The notes under the pieces were generated by a model. That model had not been told where the DNA came from. It saw only the letters and a program-made list of their open reading frames with translations, and did not search any database. DNA of 13,998 nt from a virus. Lineage: Duplodnaviria > Heunggongvirae > Uroviricota > Caudoviricetes. The stretch lies in the IMG/VR virus record IMGVR_UViG_2740892233_000016, positions 1-13,998 of that record; one strand, written 5' to 3'. The translations under genes were made by a program, and so were the position numbers. Below, piece by piece: positions 1 to 12,537 of the stretch (positions are counted from its first letter, which is position 1; every line of letters starts with the position of its first letter).

Positions 1-1242
1 ATGGCGAGAAAAACACACCCATTAACCACAGTGCAGATCAAAGCAGCCAGACCAGCGCAAAAGGAGTACACCCTGCAGGACGGCGGAGGGCTTTTTCTCC
101 TGGTCAAACCGTCTGGATCAAAACTCTGGAGATTTTCCTACTACCGACCATCGGACAAAAAAAGAATATTGCTGAGTTTTGGATCGCTTGAAGATGTTTC
201 CCTGGCTGATGCCAGAAAACGCCGTAGCGAGTACAGGACGTTAATCAGTGCCGGAACTGACCCGCAGGACCACGAGAGGCAAAAAAGAGAGACAGAGGCC
301 CGAAGACAAGGGAACACGTTCGAAAATGTGGCGGCGGCATGGTACCAGGTGAAAATCAGCCAGAATCTGGCCCCCAACACGATTAAAGACATCTGGCGTT
401 CGCTGGATAAATATGTATTCCCGTTCATCGGCAACACGCCAATAGATACCCTCACCGCCCGAAGGTTCGTTGAAGTGCTTACCCCCATCAAGGAGCGCGG
501 CAACCTGGAAACACTCAAGCGGGTTTTACAGCGCGTTAATGAGGTAATGGATTACGCCGCCAACAGTGGGCTGATTGATGCCAATCCGGCTATGAATGTG
601 CGTAAGGCGTTTCCCTCACCTGTAAAAAAACATATGCCAACAATCCGCCCCGAACAGCTGCCCGAGCTTATGCAGGCTTTATCAGTATCGGCAACAGAAC
701 GGCAGACCAGATTACTGATTGAATGGCAGTTACTGACCGTAACCCGTCCCGCCGAAGCGTCATCAACGCGGTGGGATGAAATCAACCTGGACGCGAAGCA
801 ATGGACGATACCTGCCGGACGCATGAAGATGCGCAGGGATCACGTTATCCCGCTTTCCGGTCAGGCTATGGCGGTGCTGGAGGCCATGAAACCAATCAGC
901 CACCACCGCAATTACGTTTTCCCAAGTCTGAAAGACCCACAGCAGCCGATGAACAGCCAGACAGCTAACGCAGCATTGCGGCGTATGGGATTCGCTGGCG
1001 TGCTGGTGTCTCATGGATTACGCGCCATATTCAGCACAGCAGCGAACGAGGAAGGATTCGAGCCGGACGTAATAGAGGCGGCACTTGCCCACGTCGACAC
1101 CAACGAAGTTAGACGGGCATACAACCGGAGCAACTACATAGAAAAACGCATCGTGCTGATGCGCTGGTGGGGCGAATTTGTCGAGGCTGCGGCGACGGGC
1201 GTAACCCTCGCCAGTGGTAAAAGGGGTATCCGAGCCGTGTAG
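1..1242 (+). CDS. int: Tyrosine integrase, P4-like family
   Basis: 413 aa; N-terminus ...LQDGGGLFLLVKPSGSKLWRFSYY... typical of P4-type integrase arm-binding domain; C-terminal catalytic region with ...HGLRAIFSTAA... and ...AHVDTNEVRRAYNRSNY... (catalytic Tyr region). Stop TAG at 1240..1242. Confidence 0.93.
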   Translation: MARKTHPLTTVQIKAARPAQKEYTLQDGGGLFLLVKPSGSKLWRFSYYRPSDKKRILLSFGSLEDVSLADARKRRSEYRTLISAGTDPQDHERQKRETEARRQGNTFENVAAAWYQVKISQNLAPNTIKDIWRSLDKYVFPFIGNTPIDTLTARRFVEVLTPIKERGNLETLKRVLQRVNEVMDYAANSGLIDANPAMNVRKAFPSPVKKHMPTIRPEQLPELMQALSVSATERQTRLLIEWQLLTVTRPAEASSTRWDEINLDAKQWTIPAGRMKMRRDHVIPLSGQAMAVLEAMKPISHHRNYVFPSLKDPQQPMNSQTANAALRRMGFAGVLVSHGLRAIFSTAANEEGFEPDVIEAALAHVDTNEVRRAYNRSNYIEKRIVLMRWWGEFVEAAATGVTLASGKRGIRAV

Positions 1243-1319
1243 CTGTACAGAAAACCAGTAAAAACTACGAAAACCATGTAAAACCGTCGTATAATTGCAT
1301 CAAATTTAACGACAAGGCC

Positions 1320-1571
1320 GTGAAACATGAAACCGTTAAGATGCAAAAAAATATCAGATGCAATTGCGACGGGCTGCAACTGGCCCTGATGGTTCAGCAT
1401 GAATTTTGGTCAACCTACGATCCGGAGGACAGAACGACGGCCCCATCAAAAAAACAGGTAGTAGATTTTCTGGTATCCCGTGGCGCTTCCAGAAATCTGG
1501 CGGTAAGTATTGATAAGGTCGTACGTCCGGCATCTATGAAGATCGGAGGCAGGCCCAAAAAATGGCGGTAA
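1320..1571 (+). CDS. Hypothetical protein (83 aa)
   Basis: ORF between int and alpA, immediately followed by a clean intrinsic terminator; no recognisable family; weak RBS (AAGG). Confidence 0.35.
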   Translation: MKHETVKMQKNIRCNCDGLQLALMVQHEFWSTYDPEDRTTAPSKKQVVDFLVSRGASRNLAVSIDKVVRPASMKIGGRPKKWR

Positions 1572-1582
1572 CAATCCTGGAA

Positions 1583-1605
1583 GCGGCAGAAATGCCGCTT
1601 TTTTT
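1583..1605 (+). terminator. Rho-independent terminator
   Basis: GCGGCA-GAAA-TGCCGC hairpin followed by T7 run. Confidence 0.6.
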
Positions 1606-1634
1606 ATAATTCCATTTCAAATCATCAATATAAA

Positions 1635-1672
1635 AAACGGTGTATACCGTTTAAAAACGGTGGGAACTGTTT
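1635..1672. promoter_or_regulatory. Cluster of AAACGGT/ACCGTTT half-site repeats upstream of alpA (putative operator)
   Basis: AAACGGT(1635..1641), ACCGTTT(1646..1652), AAACGGT(1655..1661), ACTGTTT(1666..1672) forming overlapping inverted repeats about 70-100 bp upstream of the alpA start. Confidence 0.3.
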
Positions 1673-1738
1673 TTACCCATATCCGATGATTTACCGTATT
1701 TGTCACCGGAATACACCGGATTCACAAGGTAAATCACG

Positions 1739-1945
1739 ATGGAAGCAATCAGAAAAATTATCTTTCGCCAGGAAGTAAAAAAAATTATCCACATCAAGGC
1801 AGACAGCACGCTGCAAAGCATGATCAACGCCGGAGAATTTCCGCAGGGTTTTCGCGTTGGTTTACGCCGTCGCGGATGGTATGAGGATGATGTGTTGTCC
1901 TGGCAGAAAGAACGCGAAGAGGAAGCACGCGGAACGGCTGCTTAA
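1739..1945 (+). CDS. alpA: AlpA-family (prophage CP4-57-type) transcriptional regulator
   Basis: 68 aa; ...STLQSMINAGEFPQGFRVGLRRRGWYEDDVLSWQ... matches the AlpA helix-turn-helix signature (..AGEFP.P.K.G.R...W...V..W). Confidence 0.85.
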   Translation: MEAIRKIIFRQEVKKIIHIKADSTLQSMINAGEFPQGFRVGLRRRGWYEDDVLSWQKEREEEARGTAA

Positions 1946-2093
1946 CGGGTATCACAGATATGACAAACACGAAAAAAGCGGCCCCGATATGGAGCCGCCT
2001 TTCTGAACAATTAACCCGCTGCGCCTTATGTGTATGTGATCCCAAACATAAGCACGGGGATGATAGCCGCTATCAGGCTGGTGGGCAATGCAA

Positions 2094-2282
2094 TCAGTCT
2101 GGTTCAGTTCGTTGCCATACCTGCAATGAGCGCTTTTCCCTGTACTCTTTAAGGAATTGCTCAAGGGCAAAAGCACATGGCGCGAATCTTTCTGATTCAT
2201 GCTCTATCTTTCTGCGCCGTCTTTTCCGTGCCGGTGATAATGTTTTGGTCAATTCTTTATCGGTCATTGTGTTGTCCTGCAT
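2094..2282 (-). CDS. Hypothetical small basic protein (62 aa; alternative start at 2267 gives 57 aa with AGGA RBS)
   Basis: Minus-strand ORF downstream of Arc-like gene 1; contains RKRRRRK basic stretch; antisense frame on + strand is open (typical of real coding DNA). Confidence 0.4.
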   Translation of the reverse strand: MQDNTMTDKELTKTLSPARKRRRRKIEHESERFAPCAFALEQFLKEYREKRSLQVWQRTEPD

Positions 2283-2324
2283 AGCAATGCGCCGTAATAC
2301 CTCACACCACGGCGCTGATAGTTT

Positions 2325-2498
2325 TTATCCTTTGGGTTCTATGCCGCGTTGCTGTAATTCTTTGCGGAGAACGCGTTTAATCCAAGTGGCTAAAGATGTG
2401 TCGCCATCGGCCTTAGCTGCTTCTTCTAGCTGCGCTCTGAAGTCTTCCGGTAATCGCATTTGGTATGGAGGCGAACGTTTTTCTAATGGTGTTGACAT
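2325..2498 (-). CDS. Arc-like ribbon-helix-helix repressor (57 aa), module 1
   Basis: Not in the ORF track (<60 aa). Translation MSTPLEKRSPPYQMRLPEDFRAQLEEAAKADGDTSLATWIKRVLRKELQQRGIEPKG has the RHH pattern (beta strand ..MRLPEDF.. then two helices). RBS GAAGGG 8 nt upstream; start codon overlaps the divergent promoter/operator. Confidence 0.7.
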   Translation of the reverse strand: MSTPLEKRSPPYQMRLPEDFRAQLEEAAKADGDTSLATWIKRVLRKELQQRGIEPKG

Positions 2499-2538
2499 GG
2501 TAATTACCCTTCATTACTATACCTACATGGTAATTACC
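2492..2538 (+). promoter_or_regulatory. Rightward sigma70-like promoter (TTGACA-N17-TACTAT) with two copies of palindromic operator GGTAATTACC
   Basis: TTGACA 2492..2497, TACTAT 2515..2520; 14-mer ACATGGTAATTACC at 2495..2508 and 2525..2538 (palindrome cores 2499..2508 and 2529..2538, exactly 30 bp apart), overlapping spacer and +1. Confidence 0.55.
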
Positions 2539-2628
2539 ATTGTACTTGCCATTACACAAAAATCAACGCCCCGCAGTGCTGGGAACACATACGGGGCGTC
2601 TAACCAACAACGTAAACTAGGAGCCGTT

Positions 2629-3189
2629 ATGGTTGCCGTAAATCATATACCACACCTTGTACACACACAAACGGCCTTTGTGTGGCGTTTTCTGGCCCTG
2701 AATATCGGAGAAAAAAACCAGTTGATCGCCAGTGTCGAAAATAGCTATGATTCCCGCGCACCTCATAAAACGGGTGCCGGGATTGGCGTCCTGGGCAAAA
2801 CTGAAGCGCATAACACGCGCCCCGCGTGTTTTTTTGTGCCGCATAGTCACACCTTATCAATGGTGGGCTGTACGGGGGCGGAGCAATCCGCGCCGGTTTC
2901 TTCAGTGTCCGGTTACGCCAACCCTGTACAGTCCGCCACCAGCGAAATTGGCGTTTCCGGTGGCGGTTATCTTAACCACACTGAGGAGGCTGCCAACATG
3001 GCTACTATCCCTACCCTTGTACATTCTCAAACCGCCTTTCTCTGGCGCTTTATCATCTTTGGCGCGTCAGAACATCAAATCATCCACGTAACCGCCTGGA
3101 CGGAACGCGAAGCGCGTAGCCGTTGCCCGTCCGGTTGTGTTGCTGTATTCGCCGCCCGTATTCGTCAGGAGGTGTGCCATGTGCAATAA
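2629..3189 (+). CDS. Early-operon protein with internal tandem repeat of a small domain ending ...FAARIRQEVCHVQ (possibly Icd-like family; unverified)
   Basis: 186 aa from ATG 2629 with strong RBS AGGAG (2619..2623); two internal copies of motif ...LVH(T/S)QTAF(V/L)WRF(L/I)... ; the ORF-track 409-aa ORF is an upstream run-through of this frame. Confidence 0.6.
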   Translation: MVAVNHIPHLVHTQTAFVWRFLALNIGEKNQLIASVENSYDSRAPHKTGAGIGVLGKTEAHNTRPACFFVPHSHTLSMVGCTGAEQSAPVSSVSGYANPVQSATSEIGVSGGGYLNHTEEAANMATIPTLVHSQTAFLWRFIIFGASEHQIIHVTAWTEREARSRCPSGCVAVFAARIRQEVCHVQ

Positions 3190-3400
3190 AACCACACCGG
3201 ACGCAGCAGCCGCCGCGCTCACTACGCTGATGCACGCGCTTATCGATATTGAATGCACTGCAGAGCTTGCGCAGGGAGAAGAACAGAAAGACCGGACACA
3301 GTTCGCCCTGGAATGTATCCGATACATCGCAACGCGGTCGCTGAATGACGCTAAAAATATTCTTGTTGCTGATTGTGAAAATGGGGGGGGTTATGCGTGA
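3179..3400 (+). CDS. Hypothetical protein, N-terminal half of module-1 gene 2 (split relative to module-2 homolog)
   Basis: ATG 3179 overlaps stop of upstream gene (ATGTGCAATAA), RBS AGGAGG; homolog of N-terminal half of 4481..4945; terminated just after a G8 tract (3383..3390). Confidence 0.5.
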   Translation: MCNKTTPDAAAAALTTLMHALIDIECTAELAQGEEQKDRTQFALECIRYIATRSLNDAKNILVADCENGGGYA

Positions 3401-3614
3401 TGATCGTTTTAATTCCCTGAAACAAGAATTTTCCGGCGTTCCTGATGATGCGGCTGATGCGCTTTCGTCAATATCTGAAATTATGCGGGTGGCTTTTTTC
3501 TTTCTTTGCACTGATGAGCACAGAGATACAGGGCTAAATATTCTTGATATTGCCGCTAACTATGCTGATTTCGTGACAGAAGCTGTTTTAAGAAAAACAA
3601 CGGACGGGGATTAA
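3393..3614 (+). CDS. Hypothetical protein, C-terminal half of module-1 gene 2 (MRDDRFNSLKQEFSGVPDD...)
   Basis: Starts at ATG 3393 with the G8 tract acting as Shine-Dalgarno; near-identical at nucleotide level to 4713..4800 of the module-2 fused gene. Confidence 0.5.
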   Translation: MRDDRFNSLKQEFSGVPDDAADALSSISEIMRVAFFFLCTDEHRDTGLNILDIAANYADFVTEAVLRKTTDGD

Positions 3615-3615
3615 T

Positions 3616-3849
3616 ATGCGTGATATTTACCACGAAACAATAGACCGCGCATTTAGTGCCCTTGCTTACGCTGAAGGTATGTACGAAATATTGCGCATAT
3701 GGCTTGAAACACTTGGCGACAATGAACGCGACAAACAAAAATCAAGAATTGCCACGGCATTAATAACGCTTCTTGATCCTGTAATAATGGAACTGCAAGA
3801 AATAGATCTATTGCACGACAGATATAACGAACAGCACACCGGAGAATAA
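3616..3849 (+). CDS. Hypothetical protein (77 aa), module 1
   Basis: MRDIYHETIDRAF...; paralog of 4938..5171 (about 85 percent aa identity); start overlaps the preceding stop (TAATATG). Confidence 0.6.
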   Translation: MRDIYHETIDRAFSALAYAEGMYEILRIWLETLGDNERDKQKSRIATALITLLDPVIMELQEIDLLHDRYNEQHTGE

Positions 3850-3873
3850 AAATAATGAAACTTAAATATTCTG

Positions 3874-3883
3874 NNNNNNNNNN
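3874..3883. other. Run of 10 N (gap or masked bases) at junction between module 1 and module 2
   Basis: Directly seen; truncates a gene start MKLKYS... (ATG 3855) that is the paralog of 5177..5476. Confidence 0.9.
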
Positions 3884-3905
3884 TACACCACGGCGCTGAT
3901 GGTGA

Positions 3906-4085
3906 TTACTCTGGTTCTTTGGCCTTGCGCCGCTGGCGATATTCAACTTCTCGTTTTAATGCTGCAGTAACAAATTGCCCCGTACTTTCGCCAGGCATTT
4001 TTACCGCCTCAACATTGTTCATAACTTCATGCGGAACCCTTGCCGCAACGGTTTGTGATTTTGCGTTTACTGCTTTTGTCGCCAT
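3906..4085 (-). CDS. Arc-like ribbon-helix-helix repressor (59 aa), module 2
   Basis: Not in the ORF track (<60 aa). Translation MATKAVNAKSQTVAARVPHEVMNNVEAVKMPGESTGQFVTAALKREVEYRQRRKAKEPE; RBS GAGGGG 8 nt upstream; divergent from the module-2 promoter. Confidence 0.65.
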   Translation of the reverse strand: MATKAVNAKSQTVAARVPHEVMNNVEAVKMPGESTGQFVTAALKREVEYRQRRKAKEPE

Positions 4086-4135
4086 GTGGTGTACCCCTCA
4101 TAAAAAACAAATGCAGTATGCAGGAAAAAAAATAA

Positions 4136-4187
4136 GTGTTCAACACTTGACGTGTTTAACACCTGGGTTTAAATTGGTGTTCAACAC
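4136..4187 (+). promoter_or_regulatory. Rightward promoter (TTGACG-N17-TAAATT) with three copies of near-palindromic operator GTGTT(C/T)AACAC
   Basis: Sites at 4136..4146, 4152..4162, 4177..4187; -35 TTGACG 4147..4152, -10 TAAATT 4170..4175. Confidence 0.5.
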
Positions 4188-4284
4188 CTTGTTGGCGCAA
4201 GGTGCAGAAACGACGAAACCCGGCAGTGCGCTAACACTAACCGGGCTTCTAACCACCAACGATAGCGAAAGTATCGAGGTAGCT

Positions 4285-4491
4285 ATGAGAAATCATACCA
4301 CACACCCGCAAGGGCGGGACTCGCACAACCTGAATAAATACATCTGGCGTTTTATCGCCCTGAGCACGGCACAACCGCGCGTGATTACCATTGAGGCCAC
4401 CAGCGAACAGGAAGCACGCCAGCAATCTCCGGCTGGCTGCGTGATGGTATTCGCTGCCCGTATTCGTCAGGAGGTGTGCCATGTGCAATAA
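4285..4491 (+). CDS. Small protein ending ...FAARIRQEVCHVQ (single-domain paralog of 2629..3189; possibly Icd-like)
   Basis: 68 aa from ATG 4285 (RBS GAGG); C-terminal 25 aa nearly identical to C-terminus of 2629..3189; the ORF-track 190-aa ORF is an upstream run-through crossing the promoter. Confidence 0.55.
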   Translation: MRNHTTHPQGRDSHNLNKYIWRFIALSTAQPRVITIEATSEQEARQQSPAGCVMVFAARIRQEVCHVQ

Positions 4492-4945
4492 CATCCGTCC
4501 GGACGCAGCCGCCGAAGCCATCATAACGCTAATGCACGCGCTGATTGATATTTCTGTTATCGCAGACATGGCGCATAAGCACGCCACCAGTGAAACAGAA
4601 TATGCCGGGGCTTTCGTTCCTCATTCGCTGGCGGTTATGCAACTTAGTGCGGATATGGCGCTGAATGAGGCCAAAGCCATCCTGATTGCTGATTGTGAAA
4701 ATGGGGGGGTTATGCGTGATGATCGTTTTAATTCCCTGAAACAGGAATTTTCCGGCGTTCCTGATGATGCGGCTGATGCGCTTTCGTCAATGCCAGAACT
4801 TATTAGAGCGGCTTTTTTCTTACTTTCCACGAGAGAATATAAATCAACGGGGCTTGATGTACTGAATATCGCCGCCGATTATGCGGAATATGTGGCAGAG
4901 GCGCGTTATAGAAGAAAATTTCCTGAGGATGTAAGCCATGCGTGA
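4481..4945 (+). CDS. Hypothetical protein (154 aa), module-2 gene 2 (fused form)
   Basis: ATG overlapping upstream stop, RBS AGGAGG; reads through a G7 tract (4703..4709) where module 1 has G8. Confidence 0.6.
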   Translation: MCNNIRPDAAAEAIITLMHALIDISVIADMAHKHATSETEYAGAFVPHSLAVMQLSADMALNEAKAILIADCENGGVMRDDRFNSLKQEFSGVPDDAADALSSMPELIRAAFFLLSTREYKSTGLDVLNIAADYAEYVAEARYRRKFPEDVSHA

Positions 4946-5171
4946 TATTTACCACCAAACAATAGACCGCGCATTTCTTGCACTTTCTCACAGTGAAAAC
5001 ATGCTGGAAATATTGCGCATATGGCTTGAAACACTTGGCGACAATGAACGCGACAAACAAAAATCAAGAATTGTCACGGCATTAATAACGCTTCTTGAGC
5101 CTGTAATAAATGAGTTGCAGGAAATAGAGACATTGCACGACAGATATAACGAACAGCACACCGGAGAATAA
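4938..5171 (+). CDS. Hypothetical protein (77 aa), module 2
   Basis: MRDIYHQTIDRAF...; overlapping start/stop with the upstream gene. Confidence 0.6.
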   Translation: MRDIYHQTIDRAFLALSHSENMLEILRIWLETLGDNERDKQKSRIVTALITLLEPVINELQEIETLHDRYNEQHTGE

Positions 5172-5176
5172 AAATA

Positions 5177-5476
5177 ATGAAACTTAAATATTCTGGCTTA
5201 ACTGCCAGTGGCAACACTCACCCTAAATTTACGCGCGGTGATATTTACCGCGACCAGTACGGCGGCACGGTAATGATTAAGGGCGTGGCGGGACGGTGCG
5301 TAACTTACCGCCGTGAAGGTTACGAATATGATTGCGTGATGCCTGTTTATCAGTTCCGGCGTGATTTTTCTCTGGTACAGACCGCGCCGCATAACGTGCC
5401 CACCAGCAACGCCAGGGCACGGGCAAACATCCAGAAGCTGAAAACCATGATTAACGGATTCAGGGGCAAGAAATGA
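5177..5476 (+). CDS. Hypothetical protein (99 aa), translationally coupled to the rep-like gene
   Basis: Stop overlaps the rep start (ATGA at 5473..5476); the first 6 codons are duplicated at 3855..3873. Confidence 0.55.
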   Translation: MKLKYSGLTASGNTHPKFTRGDIYRDQYGGTVMIKGVAGRCVTYRREGYEYDCVMPVYQFRRDFSLVQTAPHNVPTSNARARANIQKLKTMINGFRGKK

Positions 5477-6873
5477 AAAGCGCACCGAACTTAAAAAAAC
5501 AGCCTTACGACAAGATGACCGAAGTCATTATTTTTGCGGGTAGTGATGCCTGGGCACATGCGAAACAGTGGCAGGAACAGGACGGGCGACTGGCTGGCGA
5601 TAATGTGCCTCCCGTTGTGCTGGCTGATGATCAACTGGATGAACTGGCAGACCTGAGAATCATCGACGAGGGGCGCTATTGTGTCCGGCTGTACAAGGCA
5701 GGCCACATCAGGCCATCAAATATTAATGCCATTGCGCACAAGCTGGCGGCGGCGGGTGTAACTGATGCGAATTATTACCCCGAAGGGATGCACAGCCATA
5801 TGCGGGAGAACTGGCGCGAATACCTGGAACGGGTGCGCGGGAAAGAGCCGGCGGAAGAAAAAAACCACCAGCGAAAAACCACGCTACCGATGAGCGTTGG
5901 ATCTACCGGATACGACACGCAACTGGATTACGTGGTTAAGGGGATTATTCCGGCGGTATCGCTATGCAGCATATACGGGGCTAGCGGGTCCTATAAATCA
6001 TTCCTTGCCGGATCGTGGGCGTGCCATGTTGCCACTGGTCGCCAGTGGGGAGGCCGCAGGGTTGCACATGGTGCGGTTCTCTATGTGGTTGGTGAAGGCG
6101 GTATAGGTGTTCCGCGTCGTGTAAAAGCCTGGGAGGTTGTGCACGATGAGCAGGTGAAAAATCTGTATCTGGTAAACCGCCCCATCTTTCCGGCTGCCCC
6201 GCTTGATGTTGATGAAATGGTTATCGCTGCCCGTCAGGTGGAGCGGGAAACGGGTAAACCTGTACGCATGATTATTCTGGATACGCTGGCGCGTTGCTTT
6301 GGTGGGAATGATGAAAATGATTCCCGTGATATGGGGGCGTTTATCCGTGGTTGTGACGAACTGAAACGACGCACAGGGGCCACGGTGCTGGTGGTTCACC
6401 ATTCCGGCAAGGATGAGACGAAAGGCGCGCGCGGTTCCAGTGCATTTCGTGCTTCGCTGGATGCTGAATACCGGATACGCAGGGAGGACGCAGGAAGCGA
6501 AGCGCTGGTTATCTCATGCACCAAAATGAAGGACGCGGAGGAACTCAAAGAAGCCGCATATGACTTACGCGTGGTGGAGCTTTTTACCGACGCTGACGGT
6601 GAATTAATCACGTCGCTGGTGGTGGTGGATGATCCGCGCCCTCCTGTTGAACTGGAGCGCATCGAGGAGGCAGGGAACAAGACGGAAAACCATACCGCGC
6701 TATGGGGGTGCATCCGTTCACGCACACAGAACGGCGACAAGTGCACGATCCCGCTGTTACGTGATGACATGAAAAAGCTGGGGTATGAAATGAAAAACTT
6801 CCGGCGCTGGCTGTACAAGCTGGAAAAAGATGGGGTTATTCGTATCGATGGGGATGATGTAGCGCCGCTATAA
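5473..6873 (+). CDS. RepA-like AAA ATPase / replicative helicase of the satellite (AAA_25-type)
   Basis: 466 aa; Walker A-like GASGSYKS, Walker B-like ...RMIILDTLARCF..., ...VLVVHHSGKD... motif typical of RepA/DnaB-like RecA-fold helicases; iterons begin at its stop codon. Confidence 0.8.
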   Translation: MKSAPNLKKQPYDKMTEVIIFAGSDAWAHAKQWQEQDGRLAGDNVPPVVLADDQLDELADLRIIDEGRYCVRLYKAGHIRPSNINAIAHKLAAAGVTDANYYPEGMHSHMRENWREYLERVRGKEPAEEKNHQRKTTLPMSVGSTGYDTQLDYVVKGIIPAVSLCSIYGASGSYKSFLAGSWACHVATGRQWGGRRVAHGAVLYVVGEGGIGVPRRVKAWEVVHDEQVKNLYLVNRPIFPAAPLDVDEMVIAARQVERETGKPVRMIILDTLARCFGGNDENDSRDMGAFIRGCDELKRRTGATVLVVHHSGKDETKGARGSSAFRASLDAEYRIRREDAGSEALVISCTKMKDAEELKEAAYDLRVVELFTDADGELITSLVVVDDPRPPVELERIEEAGNKTENHTALWGCIRSRTQNGDKCTIPLLRDDMKKLGYEMKNFRRWLYKLEKDGVIRIDGDDVAPL

Positions 6874-7063
6874 AAGTGAGGAGCAAAAGCGAGGGGGATA
6901 GAAAGAGGGCCAAAATTAGCCCGCTCTCCCTCACTTTTCGACCTGTATACATCCTCAAAAGTGAGGGGTAAAAAAATACTTATGAAACACACACATAGAA
7001 AAACCGAAAATCCCAACTGCGACGAAGTGAGACGCTTGAAAAAGTGAGGCGAAAAAGTGAGAG
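6873..7063. repeat. Iteron array AAAGTGAG(G/A) (putative replication origin)
   Basis: Direct copies at 6873, 6958, 7042, 7055 (plus GAAGTGAGA 7024 and degenerate AAAGCGAGG 6885, AAAGAGGG 6902) and one inverted copy CCTCACTTT 6929..6937; AT-rich stretch 6968..7010 between them. Confidence 0.6.
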
Positions 7064-7073
7064 GTTGCGAGAA

Positions 7074-7293
7074 ATGACCCAAAAACGCAGAGACAGAACA
7101 GAGCCAAAATATAAAGCGTTAGACATGACTGAGCACACCTTAAAGGTGGCAATCAGAACGATAGACCGCCACACGCGGGAAGGATACGCGAAGGAACATC
7201 CCGACCTGATAAGCGCATTCATGACCACGGCGGCGGCAAACTTTGCCACGCTGACAGAACGGGAGATTGCCGAAGCGGAACAGGTAACAACCA
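7074..7293 (+). CDS. Hypothetical protein, 3' end obscured by N run
   Basis: ORF from ATG 7074 (MTQKRRDRTEPKYKALDMTEHTLK...) running into the N run at 7294..7303; true stop unknown. Confidence 0.35.
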
Positions 7294-7303
7294 NNNNNNN
7301 NNN
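7294..7303. other. Run of 10 N (gap or masked bases)
   Basis: Directly seen. Confidence 0.9.
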
Positions 7304-7319
7304 CCGGAGAGGTGGAATT

Positions 7320-7730
7320 ATGACGGCACAGATAGCCGCTTACGGGCGGCTGGTGGACGACCCGCAGGTAAAACAGACCAGCAAGGGCACACCGATGACG
7401 CTGGCGCGTATGGCGGTATCTTTGCCATGCAGCCAGGCACAGGACGGACAGGCGACGTTATGGTTATCGGTCATCGCATTTGGCAAACAGGCCGACTTCC
7501 TGGCTAAACATCAAAAAGGCGATGTTGCCAGCGTATCCGGCACGATGCAGGTAAGCCAGTGGACCGGACAGAACGGAGAAACGCGGCAGGGCTGGCAGGT
7601 TATCGCAGACAGCGTAATCAGTGCCCGCGCGGCACGTCCAGGCGGGAACAGACGCAAAACCACAGGCACACAGGGTAATCAGCCACCAGCGGGAGGCGAT
7701 GACCCTTACGGTGATGATATTTCGTTCTGA
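7320..7730 (+). CDS. ssb: Single-stranded DNA-binding protein
   Basis: 136 aa from ATG 7320 (RBS GGAGAGGTGG); OB-fold pattern aligns with E. coli SSB (..GRLVDDPQVK.. / ..WLSVIAFGKQADFLAKHQKGDVASVSG..QVSQWTGQNGETRQ..), acidic C-terminal tail ...DDPYGDDISF. Confidence 0.85.
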   Translation: MTAQIAAYGRLVDDPQVKQTSKGTPMTLARMAVSLPCSQAQDGQATLWLSVIAFGKQADFLAKHQKGDVASVSGTMQVSQWTGQNGETRQGWQVIADSVISARAARPGGNRRKTTGTQGNQPPAGGDDPYGDDISF

Positions 7731-7740
7731 GGGGGTGACG

Positions 7741-8013
7741 ATGGTACATGACCGCATAGCGGAGGAACTGGAGGCGAAAGGCTTTTACCGGAGGGCGGCG
7801 GCGCGATGGGGTGAAGTCATGCAGCTGGTGGAGACAGACAAGGAACGGCATCACATCACGATGCGACGGCTGGAATGTTCAAGGAAGGCACAGAGGGCAC
7901 CGGAGCCGCCGGATAATTTCGGAGACCTGAAAAAGGCAGTCGATCGCACTTATGCCGAAATGGGTATAGATGGTGCTGGTGATGAAATATGGCGCAATTA
8001 CCAGGACAGCTAA
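7741..8013 (+). CDS. PerC-like transcriptional regulator
   Basis: 90 aa; N-terminus MVHDRIAEELEAKGFYRRAAARW... resembles the PerC-family N-terminal signature (recalled from memory; needs HMM confirmation). Confidence 0.55.
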   Translation: MVHDRIAEELEAKGFYRRAAARWGEVMQLVETDKERHHITMRRLECSRKAQRAPEPPDNFGDLKKAVDRTYAEMGIDGAGDEIWRNYQDS

Positions 8014-8019
8014 TCAAAC

Positions 8020-8043
8020 AGCCGGAGAAATCCGGCTTTTTTT
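8020..8043 (+). terminator. Rho-independent terminator (AGCCGGA-GAAA-TCCGGCT + T7)
   Basis: Perfect 7-bp stem, GAAA loop, T-run. Confidence 0.65.
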
Positions 8044-8139
8044 GCACCAGTTGAAACGGTATGGCGCATTACCGGGTTTTCGTCACGGTCAGGCATAGTT
8101 ACTATCTGAAACAAACAGACACAACAGAGGAAAAAAACA

Positions 8140-8364
8140 ATGCCGATGAAATTTGATGAGATATTAAAACAGCGTGATAAATACCATGCTGACAACATGG
8201 AGACGATGAGCATCAATGATTACCGCGCATTCCTGGAGACGGGCGCACTGATTGAAAAGGATCAGCATGGTTTTGTGAGATGTGCTCTATCCGGTGAAAT
8301 GCTGGCGGTAAATCCTGAACAGATAGATGCATTGATAGAATTTCTGAAAGAGATCAGAGACTGA
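8140..8364 (+). CDS. Hypothetical protein (74 aa)
   Basis: RBS GAGG upstream of ATG; followed by two terminators. Confidence 0.5.
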   Translation: MPMKFDEILKQRDKYHADNMETMSINDYRAFLETGALIEKDQHGFVRCALSGEMLAVNPEQIDALIEFLKEIRD

Positions 8365-8383
8365 GCCAGCACACAGCACACAT

Positions 8384-8406
8384 AGCCGGAGCAATCCGGC
8401 TTTTTT
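8384..8406 (+). terminator. Rho-independent terminator (AGCCGGA-GCAA-TCCGGCT + T6)
   Basis: Near-identical to the hairpins at 8020 and 10658. Confidence 0.65.
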
Positions 8407-8412
8407 GCGCCC

Positions 8413-8454
8413 AAAAAAAGCCCGATAAGGTCAGAGGGTTCTTATCGGGCTTTT
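8413..8454. terminator. Bidirectional terminator-like hairpin (A7 - GCCCGATAAG...CTTATCGGGC - T4)
   Basis: 10-bp perfect stem with 11-nt loop, flanked by A-run and T-run. Confidence 0.5.
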
Positions 8455-8510
8455 GCATATGAGGTTTTTGGATGCACTGGCGTTCGTGATCGGGATAATC
8501 ATTTCATAAT

Positions 8511-8580
8511 TTGCAACATAACTCAATATCATTGCATAAAATGCAATTCTGATTATAATCAGGACTGGATGAACATCCAG
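8511..8580 (+). promoter_or_regulatory. Late (morphogenesis) promoter region: TTGCAT-N16-TATAAT embedded in three perfect palindromes
   Basis: ATTGCATAAAATGCAAT (8531..8547), CTGATTATAATCAG (8549..8562, contains TATAAT), CTGGATGAACATCCAG (8565..8580); the downstream operon starts at 8616. Confidence 0.5.
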
Positions 8581-8615
8581 TTATGATTTTTTAAGTCGAA
8601 GAGGAATTTCTTACT

Positions 8616-8822
8616 ATGGCTGAAGAGAAAAAAGGCGGTGTTTCGGTGTACATAAGCCCCGACATCGTGAAGGCGCTCAAGGAACGCCACCAGCAGAACG
8701 TAAAAGCAGGCATTGCGGCAGGACTTGATCCGCTGGCGATGGTTGAGCCGTCAACAGGCTGGCAGGTCCGCGCCTATTTACGCGCGGCGCTGGGCATGAA
8801 TCAGACGCATGGAGGTGAATAA
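8616..8822 (+). CDS. Hypothetical protein (68 aa), translationally coupled to the capsid gene
   Basis: Stop TAA overlaps capsid ATG (TAATGG); RBS GAGGAA upstream. Confidence 0.5.
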   Translation: MAEEKKGGVSVYISPDIVKALKERHQQNVKAGIAAGLDPLAMVEPSTGWQVRAYLRAALGMNQTHGGE

Positions 8823-9877
8823 TGGCAGGCAAAGCAACGGCACTTAACACTAACCAGCTTTTCGCGTACCTGAATCGCGGGGATATTGCAGAATTTAAAT
8901 TCAGTCCGCTGTTTACCACGCTGTTTTTCCCGAACGTGGCGACCTTCAACACCCAGAACATCATGCTGGACACCCTGGACATTGAAGAGGTTACGATGTC
9001 AGCGTTCTGTTCGCCTATGGTGGGTAGTCAGGTCCAGCGCGATAAAGGGTACGAAACCAGCACGATTAAACCAGGCTACATGAAACCCAAACACGAAATC
9101 GATCCAACAAAAACCATCATGCGCATGGCTGGAGAAGATCCGGCACAGCTTAACGATCCTACCTATCGCCGTATGCGCCTGATTACTGGCAACATGCGCC
9201 GCCAGATAAACGCCATTAAGGCACGCGTGGAATGGCTGGCGGTGAATGCGGTAACGACCGGAAAAAACCTCATTGAGGGCGAAGGCATAGAACGCTATGA
9301 AATCGACTGGAAGATCCCGGAAAGCAATATCATAGAACAGGCTGACGGTAAAAAATGGTCTGAGCTGGATAAAGAAACACACGATCCAATCTATGACATC
9401 GAGCTTTATGCTGATCAGGGCAATTGCCCCGCAAACGTCATGATTATGGGCGCTGAAGTATGGCGCACGTTACGCAGCTTTAAAAAATTCCGCGAACTGT
9501 ACGACCTTTCCCGTGGTTCAGAATCCGCCGCAGAACTGGCCTGTAAAAACCTGGGTGAAGTGGTGAGCTTTAAAGGCTATCTGGGCGATATTGCCCTTGT
9601 CGTCTATTCCGGCAAATACACTGACAGCGACTGCACCGAAAAATATTTCCTTGAGCCTGATTTGCTGGTCCTGGGTAACACCAACAATAAAGGGCTGGTG
9701 GCCTATGGTGCGATTATGGATCAGGAAGCGGTCAGAACGGGCGCAACGCAAAACATGTTTTACCCGAAAAACTGGATTGAGGACGGCGATCCGGCGATTG
9801 AGTACGTGCAGACGCACAGCGCACCGCAGCCGGTACCGGCAGATATTCGCAAATTTGTTACCGTCAAAATTGGTTAA
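8822..9877 (+). CDS. Major capsid protein, lambda gpE-like
   Basis: 351 aa; collinear similarity to lambda gpE: FKFSPLFTTLFF vs FKFDPLFLRLFF; KPGYMKPKHEIDP vs TPGYVKPKHEVNP; EDPAQLNDPTYRRMRLI vs EDPQNLADPAYRRRRII; SFKGYLGDIALVVYSGKY vs SYKGMYGDVAIVVYSGQY; FYPKNWIEDGDPAIEY..HSAP vs RYPKNWVTTGDPAREF..QSAP. Confidence 0.9.
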   Translation: MAGKATALNTNQLFAYLNRGDIAEFKFSPLFTTLFFPNVATFNTQNIMLDTLDIEEVTMSAFCSPMVGSQVQRDKGYETSTIKPGYMKPKHEIDPTKTIMRMAGEDPAQLNDPTYRRMRLITGNMRRQINAIKARVEWLAVNAVTTGKNLIEGEGIERYEIDWKIPESNIIEQADGKKWSELDKETHDPIYDIELYADQGNCPANVMIMGAEVWRTLRSFKKFRELYDLSRGSESAAELACKNLGEVVSFKGYLGDIALVVYSGKYTDSDCTEKYFLEPDLLVLGNTNNKGLVAYGAIMDQEAVRTGATQNMFYPKNWIEDGDPAIEYVQTHSAPQPVPADIRKFVTVKIG

Positions 9878-9889
9878 CGGGGGGATTCT

Positions 9890-10225
9890 ATGGACACTCC
9901 ATACATTGAGTTATTTGCAGGTAGTCAGCAGGTATCCACGACGCTGGTACATTTTGCTGCTGATGCTGGCGTTATTCAGGAATTTACCCCGCTGATGCTG
10001 GCGGAAAATGGCGAGTTTAAGCCGTGGGATGGTCAGGAATCTGGCAAGGCTGTTTATCTGACCTCGTACCCCGTGGACACGTCGACGCAGAAATCAGCAC
10101 AGTGCTACAAGACGGGGATATTCAATATTGCCGCCGTTAACTGGCCTGAGAGCGCCGACACCGACGCGAAAAAATGCGCCGCCTTTGCGGGTTCTGGCGT
10201 ATCCGTTCAGCCGCTGGCGCGATAA
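9890..10225 (+). CDS. Head decoration protein, lambda gpD-like
   Basis: 111 aa; TPLMLAENGEFKPWDG... and ...CYKTGIFNIAAVNWPESADTDAKKCAAFAGSGVSVQ parallel lambda gpD TPLMLDTSSRKLVAWDG... and ...[36 protein letters not shown]. Confidence 0.85.
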   Translation: MDTPYIELFAGSQQVSTTLVHFAADAGVIQEFTPLMLAENGEFKPWDGQESGKAVYLTSYPVDTSTQKSAQCYKTGIFNIAAVNWPESADTDAKKCAAFAGSGVSVQPLAR

Positions 10226-10237
10226 GCAGGGGGAACG

Positions 10238-10651
10238 ATGGCAACGAATGAAAGTATCATGACGCTACCGCTGGCGAGTAAATTTAAAGCCGAAGCGCGG
10301 GCAATGGCTGACAGAGGTTTATCAACCTACGAGGCCGTATATCAACTTAACAGCCTGGAAGAGAAGGACAAGCCGCGCGCTGATGCGATTATGGCGCTTC
10401 ATGAATCTGACGACTATCAGCCGCTGTTACGTGCAATGGCAAACGTGCCTTGTATTGATGTTGATACGGCTAAAAACATCCTGAACATGACCATAGAGCA
10501 GGAACGCCCGAAGGTTGCACCAGAGCTTACCGCAGCCTTTGAAAACTTTATGGACATGCACAGCCCACAAGCCGTATCAGCTGGCATGGCATACGATGGC
10601 AGAAACCCGGGCGATGACGGCGACATCGATCGCATACTGAAAACCATCTGA
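10238..10651 (+). CDS. Hypothetical protein (137 aa) in the capsid module
   Basis: RBS GGGGGAACG; follows gpD-like gene; ends at a terminator; no recognised family. Confidence 0.55.
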   Translation: MATNESIMTLPLASKFKAEARAMADRGLSTYEAVYQLNSLEEKDKPRADAIMALHESDDYQPLLRAMANVPCIDVDTAKNILNMTIEQERPKVAPELTAAFENFMDMHSPQAVSAGMAYDGRNPGDDGDIDRILKTI

Positions 10652-10657
10652 GACAAG

Positions 10658-10679
10658 GCCGGAGAAATCCGGCTTTTTT
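10658..10679 (+). terminator. Rho-independent terminator (GCCGGA-GAAA-TCCGGC + T6)
   Basis: Third copy of the same hairpin sequence. Confidence 0.65.
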
Positions 10680-10703
10680 GCGGGTCCTTTCCGGCATATG
10701 GAC

Positions 10704-10745
10704 CTGTTACGGGGCGGAGACCTCGCGGATTTTCGCTATTTATGA
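10704..10745 (+). other. cos site 1 (lambda-type cosN, variant cohesive-end sequence GGGCGGAGACCT at 10712..10723)
   Basis: CTGTTACG-GGGCGGAGACCT-CGCGGATTTTCGCTATTTATGA matches the lambda cos junction GTTACG-GGGCGGCGACCT-CGCGGGTTTTCGCTATTTATGA with 2 mismatches; lies about 145 bp upstream of the Nu1-like gene, as in lambda. Confidence 0.7.
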
Positions 10746-10818
10746 GCCTTTTCAGGGGGGTGGTGGTGGTTTTGTTGTTTGATCTATCTTTATGAATGAA
10801 AAGGGAAAGATGCAAGCA

Positions 10819-10854
10819 ATACACCAACCTGAAGCAGTAATTAAGTTGGTGTAT
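10819..10854. repeat. Perfect 10-bp inverted repeat ATACACCAAC-N16-GTTGGTGTAT abutting the Nu1-like start codon
   Basis: Directly seen; right arm ends 2 nt before the ATG at 10857. Confidence 0.6.
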
Positions 10855-10856
10855 TA

Positions 10857-11399
10857 ATGAAATCTCATCTGATGAACAAAAAAAACATGGCGAAAAGCTG
10901 CCGTGTAAGTGCGACAGCGTTCGACAAGTGGGGAGTAACTCCCGTTGAGCGTAAAGGCCGTGAGGCGTTTTATGATGTTGCCAGCGTGATAGAAAATAGG
11001 GTTAACAATGCAATTAGCCAGCTTATAAACGACAAAGGCGAGATTGACGATGATGAACTTTTACGAGTCAGGATCAGATTACTGACAGCACAGGCAGAGG
11101 CGCAGGAACTTAAAAACGATCGCGATCGCGGTGACGTGATTGATACTGAGTTTTGCCTGTACGCGCTTTCAAAGCTGGCGAGTCAGATTTCATCAATCAT
11201 GGACATCCTCCCGCTTACTATGCAAAGGAGCTTCCCACAGATTACCCCCGCCATGCTGGACAGGCTTAAAAGGGAAGTGGTTAAAGCCTGTAATGCCAGT
11301 GCCAGAGTTGCCGACAACCTCCCACAGATACTGGCTGATTACTTGAAAGAAACAACCGGAAACGTACCGGAAAAGTTGCTACAGAAGAAAGGCGAGTAA
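10857..11399 (+). CDS. Terminase small subunit homolog, lambda Nu1-like (possible packaging-redirection factor)
   Basis: 180 aa vs lambda Nu1 181 aa; LTAQAEAQELKNDRDRGDVIDTEFCLYALSKLASQISSIMDILPLTMQRSFPQ vs lambda LTRAQADAQELKNARDSAEVVETAFCTFVLSRIAGEIASILDGLPLSVQRRFPE; N-terminal DNA-binding region is similar but more diverged. True start may be the second ATG (10872). Confidence 0.85.
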   Translation: MKSHLMNKKNMAKSCRVSATAFDKWGVTPVERKGREAFYDVASVIENRVNNAISQLINDKGEIDDDELLRVRIRLLTAQAEAQELKNDRDRGDVIDTEFCLYALSKLASQISSIMDILPLTMQRSFPQITPAMLDRLKREVVKACNASARVADNLPQILADYLKETTGNVPEKLLQKKGE

Positions 11400-11427
11400 C
11401 AGACGCGCAATTATTGAACAAAAATGA

Positions 11428-11489
11428 GAAAGGATCTGATAATGGCATTTTCTGGCTAAAATGCCTCGTGTCAGATCCTTTCTTTTTTT
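11428..11489 (-). repeat. Nested inverted repeat GAAAGGATCTGA...TCAGATCCTTTC + T7 (cosB R-element-like for cos site 2; could also act as terminator for the Nu1-like gene)
   Basis: 12-bp perfect outer arms (11428..11439 / 11471..11482) with inner hairpin GGCATTTT-CTGGCT-AAAATGCC; same position and architecture as the lambda cosB repeat GAAAGGAAACGACAG...CTGTCGTTTCCTTTC relative to cosN. Confidence 0.55.
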
Positions 11490-11573
11490 AATATTTTCAT
11501 TGTTAAACAGTCTGTTACAGAGAAGAAGATCGGATCTGACTTTTGCCGGAAAATTCTCATAAACAGATAAAAA

Positions 11574-11596
11574 CCGCGAGGTCGCCGCCCCGTAAC
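11574..11596 (-). other. cos site 2 (exact lambda cosN including cohesive-end sequence GGGCGGCGACCT, minus orientation)
   Basis: + strand CCGCGAGGTCGCCGCCCCGTAAC is the exact reverse complement of lambda GTTACGGGGCGGCGACCTCGCGG; adjacent reverse-strand sequence TTTATGAGAATTTTCCGG matches lambda TTTATGAAAATTTTCCGG. Confidence 0.65.
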
Positions 11597-11654
11597 GGGC
11601 CATAATTCCAGGAAGGACCCGACGACACCAGACTATCAGAGCGATGGGGGCACA

Positions 11655-11936
11655 ATGACAGAAGCCGAACTACTGGGATTAATCCGCCGCGTCGCCGGAA
11701 TCAGCCAGCAGCATGACGAACAGGCCACACAGCCGGACAGCGTGACCGCTGAAAATTATGTGCGTGTTGTAGCGGAAGTGATGCGCCGTGATGGTATAGA
11801 ACTTAATGGCGTTGATATGCGCAACATACGGAACCGCGTTCTTGAAATGCTGGCCTACAATCGCCGCGTTGAACTGTATCGGGAGAAAGAAAAAATAACG
11901 TACCACTGGAAGAAGCCGGAACGGCTGCGGCGGTAA
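11655..11936 (+). CDS. Hypothetical protein (93 aa)
   Basis: ORF with RBS GGGGG; no recognised family. Confidence 0.45.
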   Translation: MTEAELLGLIRRVAGISQQHDEQATQPDSVTAENYVRVVAEVMRRDGIELNGVDMRNIRNRVLEMLAYNRRVELYREKEKITYHWKKPERLRR

Positions 11937-12024
11937 CTTGCTGATATTCCCGATAACGCAAAATTGCGCTGGCTACATCCCTCACATCTGAGGACTGTTA
12001 ACCAGAAGGCCGGAATATATTCAC

Positions 12025-12047
12025 AAACTACGAAATTTTCGTAGTTT
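12025..12047. repeat. Perfect 23-bp palindrome AAACTACGAAA-T-TTTCGTAGTTT near right junction
   Basis: Directly seen; 11-bp perfect arms. Confidence 0.6.
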
Positions 12048-12537
12048 AATTAATGGTCAGATTAATCGCTAACCCGCTGATATTTTCGGAAACCTCAATT
12101 TGAGGAAGTCGGAAGCGTCACCCTTCATATTCTGAATGGTCATAATGACCACGCAGACCATCAAGGCAACCACAACGAACATCGTTACGGTTGGAGCTTT
12201 TACCCCACTGGGGGAAAGGTATTACGATAATCATAACACCTACCGAACAGGTAAAACCCACCAGCCTGATTAACAGTTAACCGGAAAAAAAATCCGGTAG
12301 CCCCGTTATGGGGATCCCCATATCGACATTAACGCCCCTCATGAATTGGTGCGCTTCCCCCTGGAAAGATTACCCGCCTGTATATTTCTTGTGTCTATTT
12401 GTTCCACGTTGTTTCATACAGTGCACCGAACGGTGTAGTTAATGGTGTAGTCAATTTGCTGTTTTTAGCACTTTTTGCAGTGTGTGTTGTTTAATTAAAT
12501 CAATGGGTTGCCTTGCTGTGGTGATAAAAGGACATAT

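Follow-up and report, generated by a model that had tools for sequence, protein, structure and literature searches.

A candidate iteron-type replication origin next to a RecA-fold helicase gene in an EcCICFT073-type phage-inducible chromosomal island

Background

The replication origins of phage-inducible chromosomal islands (PICIs) from Gram-negative bacteria lie immediately 3' of the rep gene, and that of the prototype, EcCICFT073, has been tested by cloning; the same islands are described as being transcribed rightward as a unit (PMC6092414). In the SaPIs, which are pathogenicity islands of Staphylococcus aureus, oppositely oriented iterons are located on either side of an AT region (PMC9371898).

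A similar arrangement is present in IMG/VR record IMGVR_UViG_2740892233_000016, of which positions 1 to 13,998 (the window) were analyzed. The window is a PICI of the EcCICFT073 type, and the region between its rep gene and the next gene (6874–7073) is, judged by comparison of sequences, very probably the replication origin of this island (rough probability, 85%). The features that it shares with PICI origins are a site 3' of rep and short iterons in two sets around an AT-rich region, to which structural modeling adds a putative initiator, namely a helicase whose C terminus is predicted to fold as a winged helix. The interpretation as an origin is based on the enrichment of the repeat motif, its confinement to this region, and a position that corresponds by synteny to the EcCICFT073 origin tested by cloning; it is further supported by the conserved layout of the repeats, their inheritance in one cassette with rep, and their co-variation with residue 442 of the Rep protein.

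The repeat array downstream of rep

The rep gene ends with the stop codon TAA at 6871–6873, and the RefSeq start (ATG) of the downstream gene is at 7074, which leaves an intergenic region (6874–7073) of ~200 bp. The motif AAAGTGAGR has five exact matches in the 13,998 bases of the window, all inside 6873–7062 (direct at 6873, 6958, 7041, and 7054; inverted at 6929–6937), compared to an average of 0.17 and at most 2 matches in 200 dinucleotide-preserving shuffles. An exact search of the whole window found no second cluster elsewhere in the island. When one mismatch is allowed, the region gains two direct copies (6886, AAAGCGAGG; 7024, GAAGTGAGA), and five other matches are scattered over the rest of the window. 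The elements of the region are as follows:

6872..6881, plus strand: iteron 1, AAAAGTGAGG, overlapping the final bases of the stop codon of rep
6885..6894, plus strand: iteron 2, AAAAGCGAGG, one mismatch; relatives have AAAAGTG[A/G]G at the same column
6929..6938, minus strand: iteron 3, inverted, reading CCTCACTTTT on the plus strand; forms the dyad's left arm
6944..6951: TGTATACA box at the center of the inverted iteron pair; columns invariant in the Escherichia coli alignment
6957..6966, plus strand: iteron 4, AAAAGTGAGG; right arm of the dyad
6968..7010: AT-rich stretch (74% AT), candidate DNA-unwinding element according to the stability profile
7024..7032, plus strand: iteron 5, GAAGTGAGA, one mismatch
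7040..7049, plus strand: iteron 6, AAAAGTGAGG
7053..7062, plus strand: iteron 7, AAAAGTGAGA
7067..7071, plus strand: degenerate core GCGAG just 5' of the ATG at 7074; relatives have GTGAG or GTGGG

The copies thus form two sets around the AT-rich stretch, four on the left (6872–6966) and four on the right (7024–7071). Each repeat is 9–10 nt long with a conserved core of 5 nt, and spacings of 13 and 17 nt occur. Opposed copies are found in the left set only, where iterons 3 and 4 form a dyad (6929–6966) that is part of an inverted repeat with fully complementary arms of 11 nt, separated by 18 nt; the right-hand copies are all direct. The AT content of 6968–7010 is 74% versus 50% for the entire window, and a nearest-neighbor profile identifies 6969–6998 as the 30-mer of lowest stability in the interval from 5.4 to 8.0 kb, within the top 0.4% of the window. 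The 3' part of iteron 7 (GAGAGG) may at the same time be the ribosome-binding site of the next gene.

An earlier note on this DNA, made from the letters of the window, had described a PICI- or plasmid-like iteron origin with at least five direct copies and one inverted copy, beginning at the rep stop codon and extending over about 190 bp. The inverted copy is present, whereas the number of direct copies is four when exact matches are counted and reaches six only if one mismatch is tolerated. The first exact copy indeed begins on the last base of the TAA, and the span and the intervening AT-rich stretch (6968..7010) agree with the data. The overlap with the next gene that the note had claimed exists only for a mechanically predicted open reading frame (ORF) starting with GTG at 7044 and not for the RefSeq start: the last full copy ends 11 nt before the ATG at 7074, so that the repeats abut the annotated gene. 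Although the note had listed the inverted copy, it did not single out the dyad that this copy forms with the next direct copy around the TGTATACA box.

No DnaA box (TTATCCACA, up to two mismatches) was found in 6874–7073, and the number of such boxes in the entire window is at chance level; a dependence on the host DnaA is therefore not indicated. A search for sigma-70-like promoters in 6500–7290 was also negative. Other candidate elements were rejected. A terminator-like hairpin on the minus strand (6907–6922) is at chance level and not conserved in relatives, a rep terminator at the 11-bp inverted repeat (6928–6967) is ruled out by the lack of a T run after the repeat, and a match to SprD in Rfam remained far below the threshold (16.9 bits versus a cut-off of 100; E = 0.48) and is attributed to chance. 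A literature search with the motif strings returned only unrelated papers; its scope was text, and the drawings in the figures of PMC6092414 lie outside it. A mechanically predicted ORF of 228 amino acids on the minus strand (6396–7082) runs antisense over the end of rep and the whole putative origin; it is not annotated in RefSeq, would lose its frame by the 1-nt indels in related islands, and is probably spurious.

Exchange of the rep-origin cassette and conservation of its layout

The Rep protein of EcCICFT073 has 584 amino acids (D5_N/DUF5906/Pox_D5), and its gene is followed by an intergenic region of 288 bp that is filled with TCTACC/GGTAGA repeats. In an alignment with this island, the window shows ~95% identity through the DUF4222 gene and the first ~90 nt of rep, and no similarity over the remaining part of rep or the sequence between rep and the next gene. 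Because identity is lost ~90 nt into rep and resumes only at ~7135–7160, inside the downstream ORF, the body of rep and the repeats are, by this alignment, one exchangeable cassette, which includes the first ~20–30 codons of the small ORF at 7074..7325. Among islands with a RepA-type helicase, the last ~200 nt of rep together with the intergenic region form the most divergent block (50–80% identity) between flanks of 90–100% identity. The rep-repeat pair is found in islands with differing downstream modules (SSB/PerC/capsid E; TerS with another capsid; a prohead protease-capsid fusion), and the cassette therefore moves along with rep rather than with the packaging genes.

The positions of the repeats were compared among 12 diverged islands of E. 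coli (L003–L014) with identities from 95% down to 73%. All copy positions are kept in these islands, whose intergenic region is only 50–70% identical and whose spacers carry 1-nt indels. The motif of the E. coli set is AAAAGTG[A/G]G, and the alternative bases at motif position 7 change together in all copies of one island, including the inverted copy. The window, L003, L004, L011, and L014 have GTGAG cores; L005–L010, L012, and L013 have GTGGG cores. The A-tract and the AAACA columns of the AT-rich stretch are conserved in relatives, and the stretch is present also in other genera.

This layout is found again in Xenorhabdus, Kosakonia, Pectobacterium, and Pantoea. In these genera, the rep stop codon is followed by one to three direct copies, a variable spacer, one or two inverted copies, a TGTATA(T/C)A box, one direct copy, an AT-rich stretch of 40–50 bp, and another three to five direct copies before the next gene. 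In 69 of 76 related loci, a spacing of 24 or 26 nt separates the inverted core from the direct core, and a TGTATA/TATATA-type box lies in the center. Dyad spacing and TA box hold for whatever iteron type or genus, and across the aligned sequences the dyad of inverted iteron, TGTATA(T/C)A box, and direct iteron is the most conserved part of the region.

Two loci, from Serratia aquatilis (L084) and Klebsiella sp. (L085), have kept the winged helix of Rep and lost the repeat array; in L084, only the first copy remains, and unrelated sequence follows it. Both are probably decayed or rearranged islands. A closed circle of 16,971 bp that was deposited as a plasmid of Klebsiella pneumoniae (pKp_Goe_795-4; CP018459.1, L097) encodes an integrase, a Rep of the type described here, a capsid protein, a head-tail adaptor, two terminase genes, and a tape-measure protein, and carries AAGTGCGGC iterons and the TGTATACA box after rep. 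It is probably not a plasmid but an excised capsid-forming PICI or a similar satellite. The circular form of this relative and the autonomous replication of the syntenic EcCICFT073 fragment are hints that the rep-origin fragment of the window may drive its own replication.

The Rep protein and its predicted DNA-binding domain

The coding features relevant to the putative initiator are as follows:

5473..6873, plus strand: rep, 466 amino acids, "helicase RepA family" (RefSeq), Pfam AAA_25 (E = 2.4e-43)
6685..6870, plus strand: coding region of a winged-helix DNA-binding domain predicted with AlphaFold2 and Foldseek
6796..6798, plus strand: codon 442, AAC (Asn), the residue immediately before predicted helix 3

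Rep consists of an N-terminal domain (residues 1–125), a RecA-fold core (AAA_25, 148–315), and a C-terminal winged helix (approximately 405–466). Searches with the separate N-terminal and C-terminal fragments found no match to either in Pfam, and a phmmer comparison with RepA of RSF1010 (1g8y) yielded only a weak match (E = 0.005). In the AlphaFold2 model of residues 390–466 (mean pLDDT 85.9; >93 from Rep residue 410 on), the winged helix comprises helices at 405–419, 426–435, and 443–452 (helix 3) and a beta hairpin at 456–465. The top matches of this tail in the PDB are nearly all winged-helix domains (PcaR, MotA, IdeR/DtxR, LexA, MexR, Fur, DnaD-N, and the winged helices of MCM8 and ORC2), with Foldseek probabilities of 0.9–0.99, TM scores of 0.55–0.73, and E values of 0.07–0.2. 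The full-length model (pLDDT 64.5) is poor in parts and shows an alpha/beta fold for the N-terminal domain; it matched only RecA-fold proteins (RadA/Rad51, T7 gp4), and nothing was found for the tail.

Residues 1–125 (window 5473–5850) share 62% identity with the N terminus of the Pri-Rep of EcCICFT073 (L002, 5742–6120). The domain common to the two proteins has no match in Pfam, and their helicase cores are unrelated; this domain stays put while helicase, winged helix, and origin are exchanged. Many relatives of Rep are proteins of ~680–700 amino acids. In the representative from Xenorhabdus beddingii (L017), Pfam identifies Zn_Ribbon_Prim, Toprim_3, and AAA_25 domains ahead of the conserved C-terminal tail, which makes it a T7 gp4-like primase-helicase with a putative origin-binding tail, the one that was modeled as a winged helix in the window's Rep. 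The rep of Pectobacterium versatile (L062) has the same Zn-ribbon and Toprim motifs, recognized in the sequence rather than with Pfam. The 466-amino-acid Rep of E. coli lacks these primase domains of the longer relatives, so that priming is presumably carried out by the host.

Co-variation of residue 442 with the iteron base

A wider scan with one genome per species added 80 loci from Xenorhabdus, Citrobacter, Kosakonia, Pantoea, Pectobacterium, Serratia, Morganella, and other genera, which brings the comparison to about 90 related islands. GTGNG cores were counted in the 260 bp after the rep stop codon, and loci with at least four copies were considered informative (n = 76). The dominant core and residue 442 of Rep are combined as follows:

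Asn at residue 442: dominant core GTGAG, 27 loci
His at residue 442: dominant core GTGGG, 16 loci
Lys at residue 442: dominant core GTGGG, 25 loci
Ser at residue 442: dominant core GTGCG, 8 loci

None of the 76 loci is discordant. The alignment of the E. coli proteins (…LGYEMK-N/H-FRRWLYKLE…) has Asn442 in all GTGAG islands and His442 in all GTGGG islands, and the pattern is independent of the N-terminal or helicase variant of Rep. Among 63 unique C-terminal domains, column 442 is the only one with zero conditional entropy, and the variable residues that are encoded closer to the origin do not predict the base. In islands L010 (His, GTGGG) and L014 (Asn, GTGAG), the last 75 residues of Rep are identical save for residue 442, a difference that requires a single base change in the codon (AAC versus CAC). 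The Klebsiella element CP018459.1, which came from a separate database, fits the rule with RKSF in Rep and its AAGTGCGGC iterons. In general, Asn prefers adenine as its base, and both His and Lys prefer guanine. By these alignments, residue 442 is a candidate determinant of the variable iteron base, and its co-variation indirectly supports a specific binding of the iterons by Rep.

The genome of E. coli 2013C-3252 (NZ_CP027442.1; L098 at 1528854–1530460 and a second locus at 372554–374444) harbors two PICIs whose Reps are 95% identical; one replicon combines Asn442 with GTGAG and the other combines His442 with GTGGG, which suggests selection for orthogonal origins. It seems somewhat favored that residue 442 sets the iteron base and that one-nucleotide changes of its codon, together with concerted changes of all iterons, create mutually orthogonal rep-origin pairs that allow several nearly identical PICIs to replicate side by side in one cell without cross-talk.

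Four other loci (L021, L029, L039, and L094; Xenorhabdus and a metagenome-assembled genome) have more degenerate cores (A/C/G-TGAGGA, CGAGGA) and a Rep with KLENDG…QRNDD in place of KLEQDG…QNNED. This subgroup may point to a further determinant of specificity, in the wing or where the recognition helix ends.

Alternative interpretations

The repeats might be an operator of Rep that controls its own expression or that of the small ORF, SSB, and PerC genes, with replication starting elsewhere. Initiators that bind iterons often regulate their own expression, as in iteron plasmids; moreover, the final copies border on the ribosome-binding site and on the start codon ATG (7074), and co-variation shows binding at most and not origin function. 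This explanation is nevertheless unlikely, because it has to do without a sigma-70-like promoter in the region searched, conflicts with the description of Gram-negative PICIs as a rightward transcription unit, and leaves the conserved dyad with its TA box, the AT-rich stretch of low stability, and the 8–11 copies without a need; also, the motif forms no other cluster in the island, and the syntenic region of EcCICFT073 behaves as an origin (PMC6092414). Operator and origin roles are not mutually exclusive.

Even less probable is a role of the repeats as sites for another protein, such as a cos or pac site read by the small terminase or sites for regulators of the AlpA or Ash type. Among the gene products of the island are a Nu1-like small terminase and several proteins that bind DNA, and clustered short repeats occur also at terminase-binding sites. 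By contrast, the repeat type follows a residue of Rep, the cassette boundaries enclose only rep and the repeats, and the same rep-repeat pair occurs across differing downstream and packaging modules.

A functionless cluster, produced by chance, by a low-complexity purine tract, or as a coding remnant, might be suspected from the A/G-rich plus strand (AT skew 0.45) and a small annotated ORF inside the region in L011, but is effectively refuted by the enrichment (0 of 200 shuffles reached five matches), by copy positions and a dyad layout that persist across genera while copies change together and spacers fall to 50–70% identity with 1-nt indels, and by an Rfam search that yielded only a sub-threshold chance match.

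Several points weigh against the interpretation as an origin or reduce the support drawn from residue 442. The evidence is entirely comparative, and it is from such comparisons that we infer both Rep binding and origin function. The E values for the predicted winged helix are weak (0.07–0.2), and the full-length model is poor in parts. The co-variation could partly reflect physical linkage, because codon 442 is only 75 nt away from the origin, and L011 resembles a recombinant with a breakpoint near this codon. Since the deeper iteron types are largely clade-specific, the number of independent events is perhaps ~4–7 rather than 76. Unlike SaPI origins, in which opposed iterons occur on both sides (PMC9371898), the right-hand set consists of direct copies only. 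In EcCICFT073 itself, deletion of the origin lowered the number of colonies but did not abolish them (PMC6092414).

Two checks that the earlier note had proposed speak for the origin: the motif count clearly exceeds chance expectation (five versus a mean of 0.17 and a shuffle maximum of 2), and the copy positions are kept in the 12 diverged E. coli islands and in about 80 loci of other Enterobacterales. Its assignment to a PICI-type iteron origin beside rep is supported by position, the two repeat sets, the AT-rich region, and the comparative tests. Its parallel with plasmid replicons holds only loosely, because Rep is not of the Rep_3 type, DnaA boxes are lacking in the region, and the repeats have 9–10 nt rather than 17–22 bp.

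Proposed mechanism and implications

By analogy, Rep most likely acts like the Rep of SaPIs, in which the helicase is the initiator (PMC9371898). Induction of the island by a helper phage would lead to the synthesis of Rep, which would form a hexameric helicase of the RecA fold that carries a winged helix at its C terminus. The winged helix would read the AAAGTGAGG iterons, with Asn442 at the start of the recognition helix reading the A at motif position 7. Rep hexamers would assemble both at the dyad, in which the inverted and the direct iteron enclose TGTATACA, and along the array of direct copies on the right; the duplex would open at the TA box and/or the adjacent stretch with 74% AT, and the helicase would load itself without DnaA. 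The single-stranded DNA-binding protein (SSB) of the island, encoded just downstream, would then coat the single strands. Double hexamers may in fact assemble, and the duplex melt, at the dyad with its TA box and not at the AT-rich stretch.

By itself, such an origin is what one expects in a mobile element of this known kind, and it is mainly of use for annotation. The comparison adds a testable, natural switch of protein-DNA specificity in a self-loading helicase. A switch that involves one residue and one base could explain the coexistence of several satellites of the same family in one genome and would provide a minimal system for the engineering of orthogonal replicons. It also allows one to examine how an origin is recognized and opened by a RecA-fold helicase that has no separate initiator.

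Genomic context

From position 3884 onward, the window is 99.6% identical to an island of E. coli O103:H2 12009 that is located between roxA (ycfD) and phoQ, the insertion site also of the prototype EcCICFT073. The island of strain 12009 appears as a PICI in the supplement listing of Fillol-Salom et al. 2018 (PMC6092414). An integrase, an AlpA-like helix-turn-helix protein, genes that all point in one direction, and a size of ~11 kb characterize the island. Besides rep, the genes of the window are as follows:

1–1242: integrase
1960–3189: Ash-family protein
5177–5476: DUF4222 protein
7074..7325, plus strand: small ORF, hypothetical protein of 83 amino acids (RefSeq annotation of the identical island), followed by the SSB gene
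7322–7732: SSB, after the small ORF (Pfam match within 7074–7730 and RefSeq annotation)
8822–9877: lambda-E-type capsid protein
10857–11399: Nu1-like small terminase
12538–13998, minus strand: phoQ

The island encodes a capsid E protein, a decoration protein, and a Nu1-like TerS. A classification as capsid-forming PICI is ruled out, because Pfam and annotation show no portal, protease, or large terminase, as in EcCICFT073. A search of a phage collection found only distant relatives of the helicase core.

Two runs of 10 N each (3874–3883 and 7294–7303) give the window the appearance of a scaffold of joined contigs. Positions 1–3873 are 99.9% identical to another PICI beside tRNA-Pro (yejM-yejO site), and positions 3884–13998 match the PICI at roxA-phoQ; these segments lie more than 1 Mb from each other in two complete genomes. 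The conclusions on the origin are not affected, since the sequence from rep to 7293 belongs to one contig and the N runs lie outside the feature.

Comparison with known systems

The closest counterpart is EcCICFT073, which has the same island type and insertion site, iterons in both orientations directly 3' of rep, and the same order of DUF4222 gene, rep, ~200–290 bp of intergenic repeats, small ORF, SSB, and PerC. The N-terminal domains of the two Reps are homologous (62% identity over 125 amino acids), whereas the D5_N/DUF5906/Pox_D5 primase-helicase of EcCICFT073 is replaced by an AAA_25 RecA-fold core in the window. The TCTACC/GGTAGA iterons of EcCICFT073 are unrelated to AAAGTGAGG, and of the two origins only that of EcCICFT073 has been tested by cloning (PMC6092414).

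With the SaPIs, whose Reps are self-loading helicase-initiators (Qiao et al. 2022, PMC9371898), the locus shares a helicase with its own C-terminal winged helix (predicted here), 6–12 short iterons immediately behind rep, an AT-rich region in the middle, and the lack of a separate initiator or loader. However, the Reps of SaPIs are related to AAA+ superfamily III and MCM helicases (PMC9371898), whereas the core of the present Rep has a RecA fold and is RepA/gp4-like. The iterons differ in length (5–6 nt in SaPIs; 9–10 nt with a 5-nt core here), and opposed copies are restricted to the left dyad.

The relationship to RSF1010 and other IncQ plasmids concerns the helicase core, which belongs to the same Pfam family (AAA_25) as RepA (1g8y) and has a weak direct sequence match to it. 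In IncQ plasmids, the iterons are bound by a separate protein, RepC, and RepA has no DNA-binding tail. In the present Rep, the helicase itself bears a predicted winged helix as well as an additional N-terminal domain, and neither annotation nor Pfam revealed a homolog of RepC or RepB among the genes of the island, which argues against an IncQ-type replicon. The primase-helicase gp4 of phage T7 is among the structural matches of Rep, and its architecture resembles that of the longer relatives in Xenorhabdus and Pectobacterium, which combine Zn_Ribbon_Prim and Toprim with the same core; the Rep of the E. coli island differs in that it lacks the primase domains. We know of no origin-binding winged helix or iterons in the case of T7 gp4.

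Iteron plasmids such as pPS10, RK2, R6K, F, and P1 also have repeats beside an AT-rich unwinding element and an origin that adjoins rep. Their initiators are of the Rep_3/TrfA type, with iterons of 17–22 bp in helical phase and DnaA boxes, whereas the putative initiator of the window is a helicase. A Pfam search with Rep gave AAA_25 only and no Rep_3 or double-winged-helix initiator, and the region is not an iteron origin of the plasmid type (Rep_3/TrfA). The alpha protein of satellite P4 is likewise a helicase with a C-terminal DNA-binding domain that reads short iterons. It differs in combining a primase with an SF3 helicase and in using separate ori and crr sites, as opposed to the one compact site after rep. 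In its helicase core, the Rep of the island belongs to another superfamily than the Reps of SaPIs and EcCICFT073, but the system as a whole follows the same logic.

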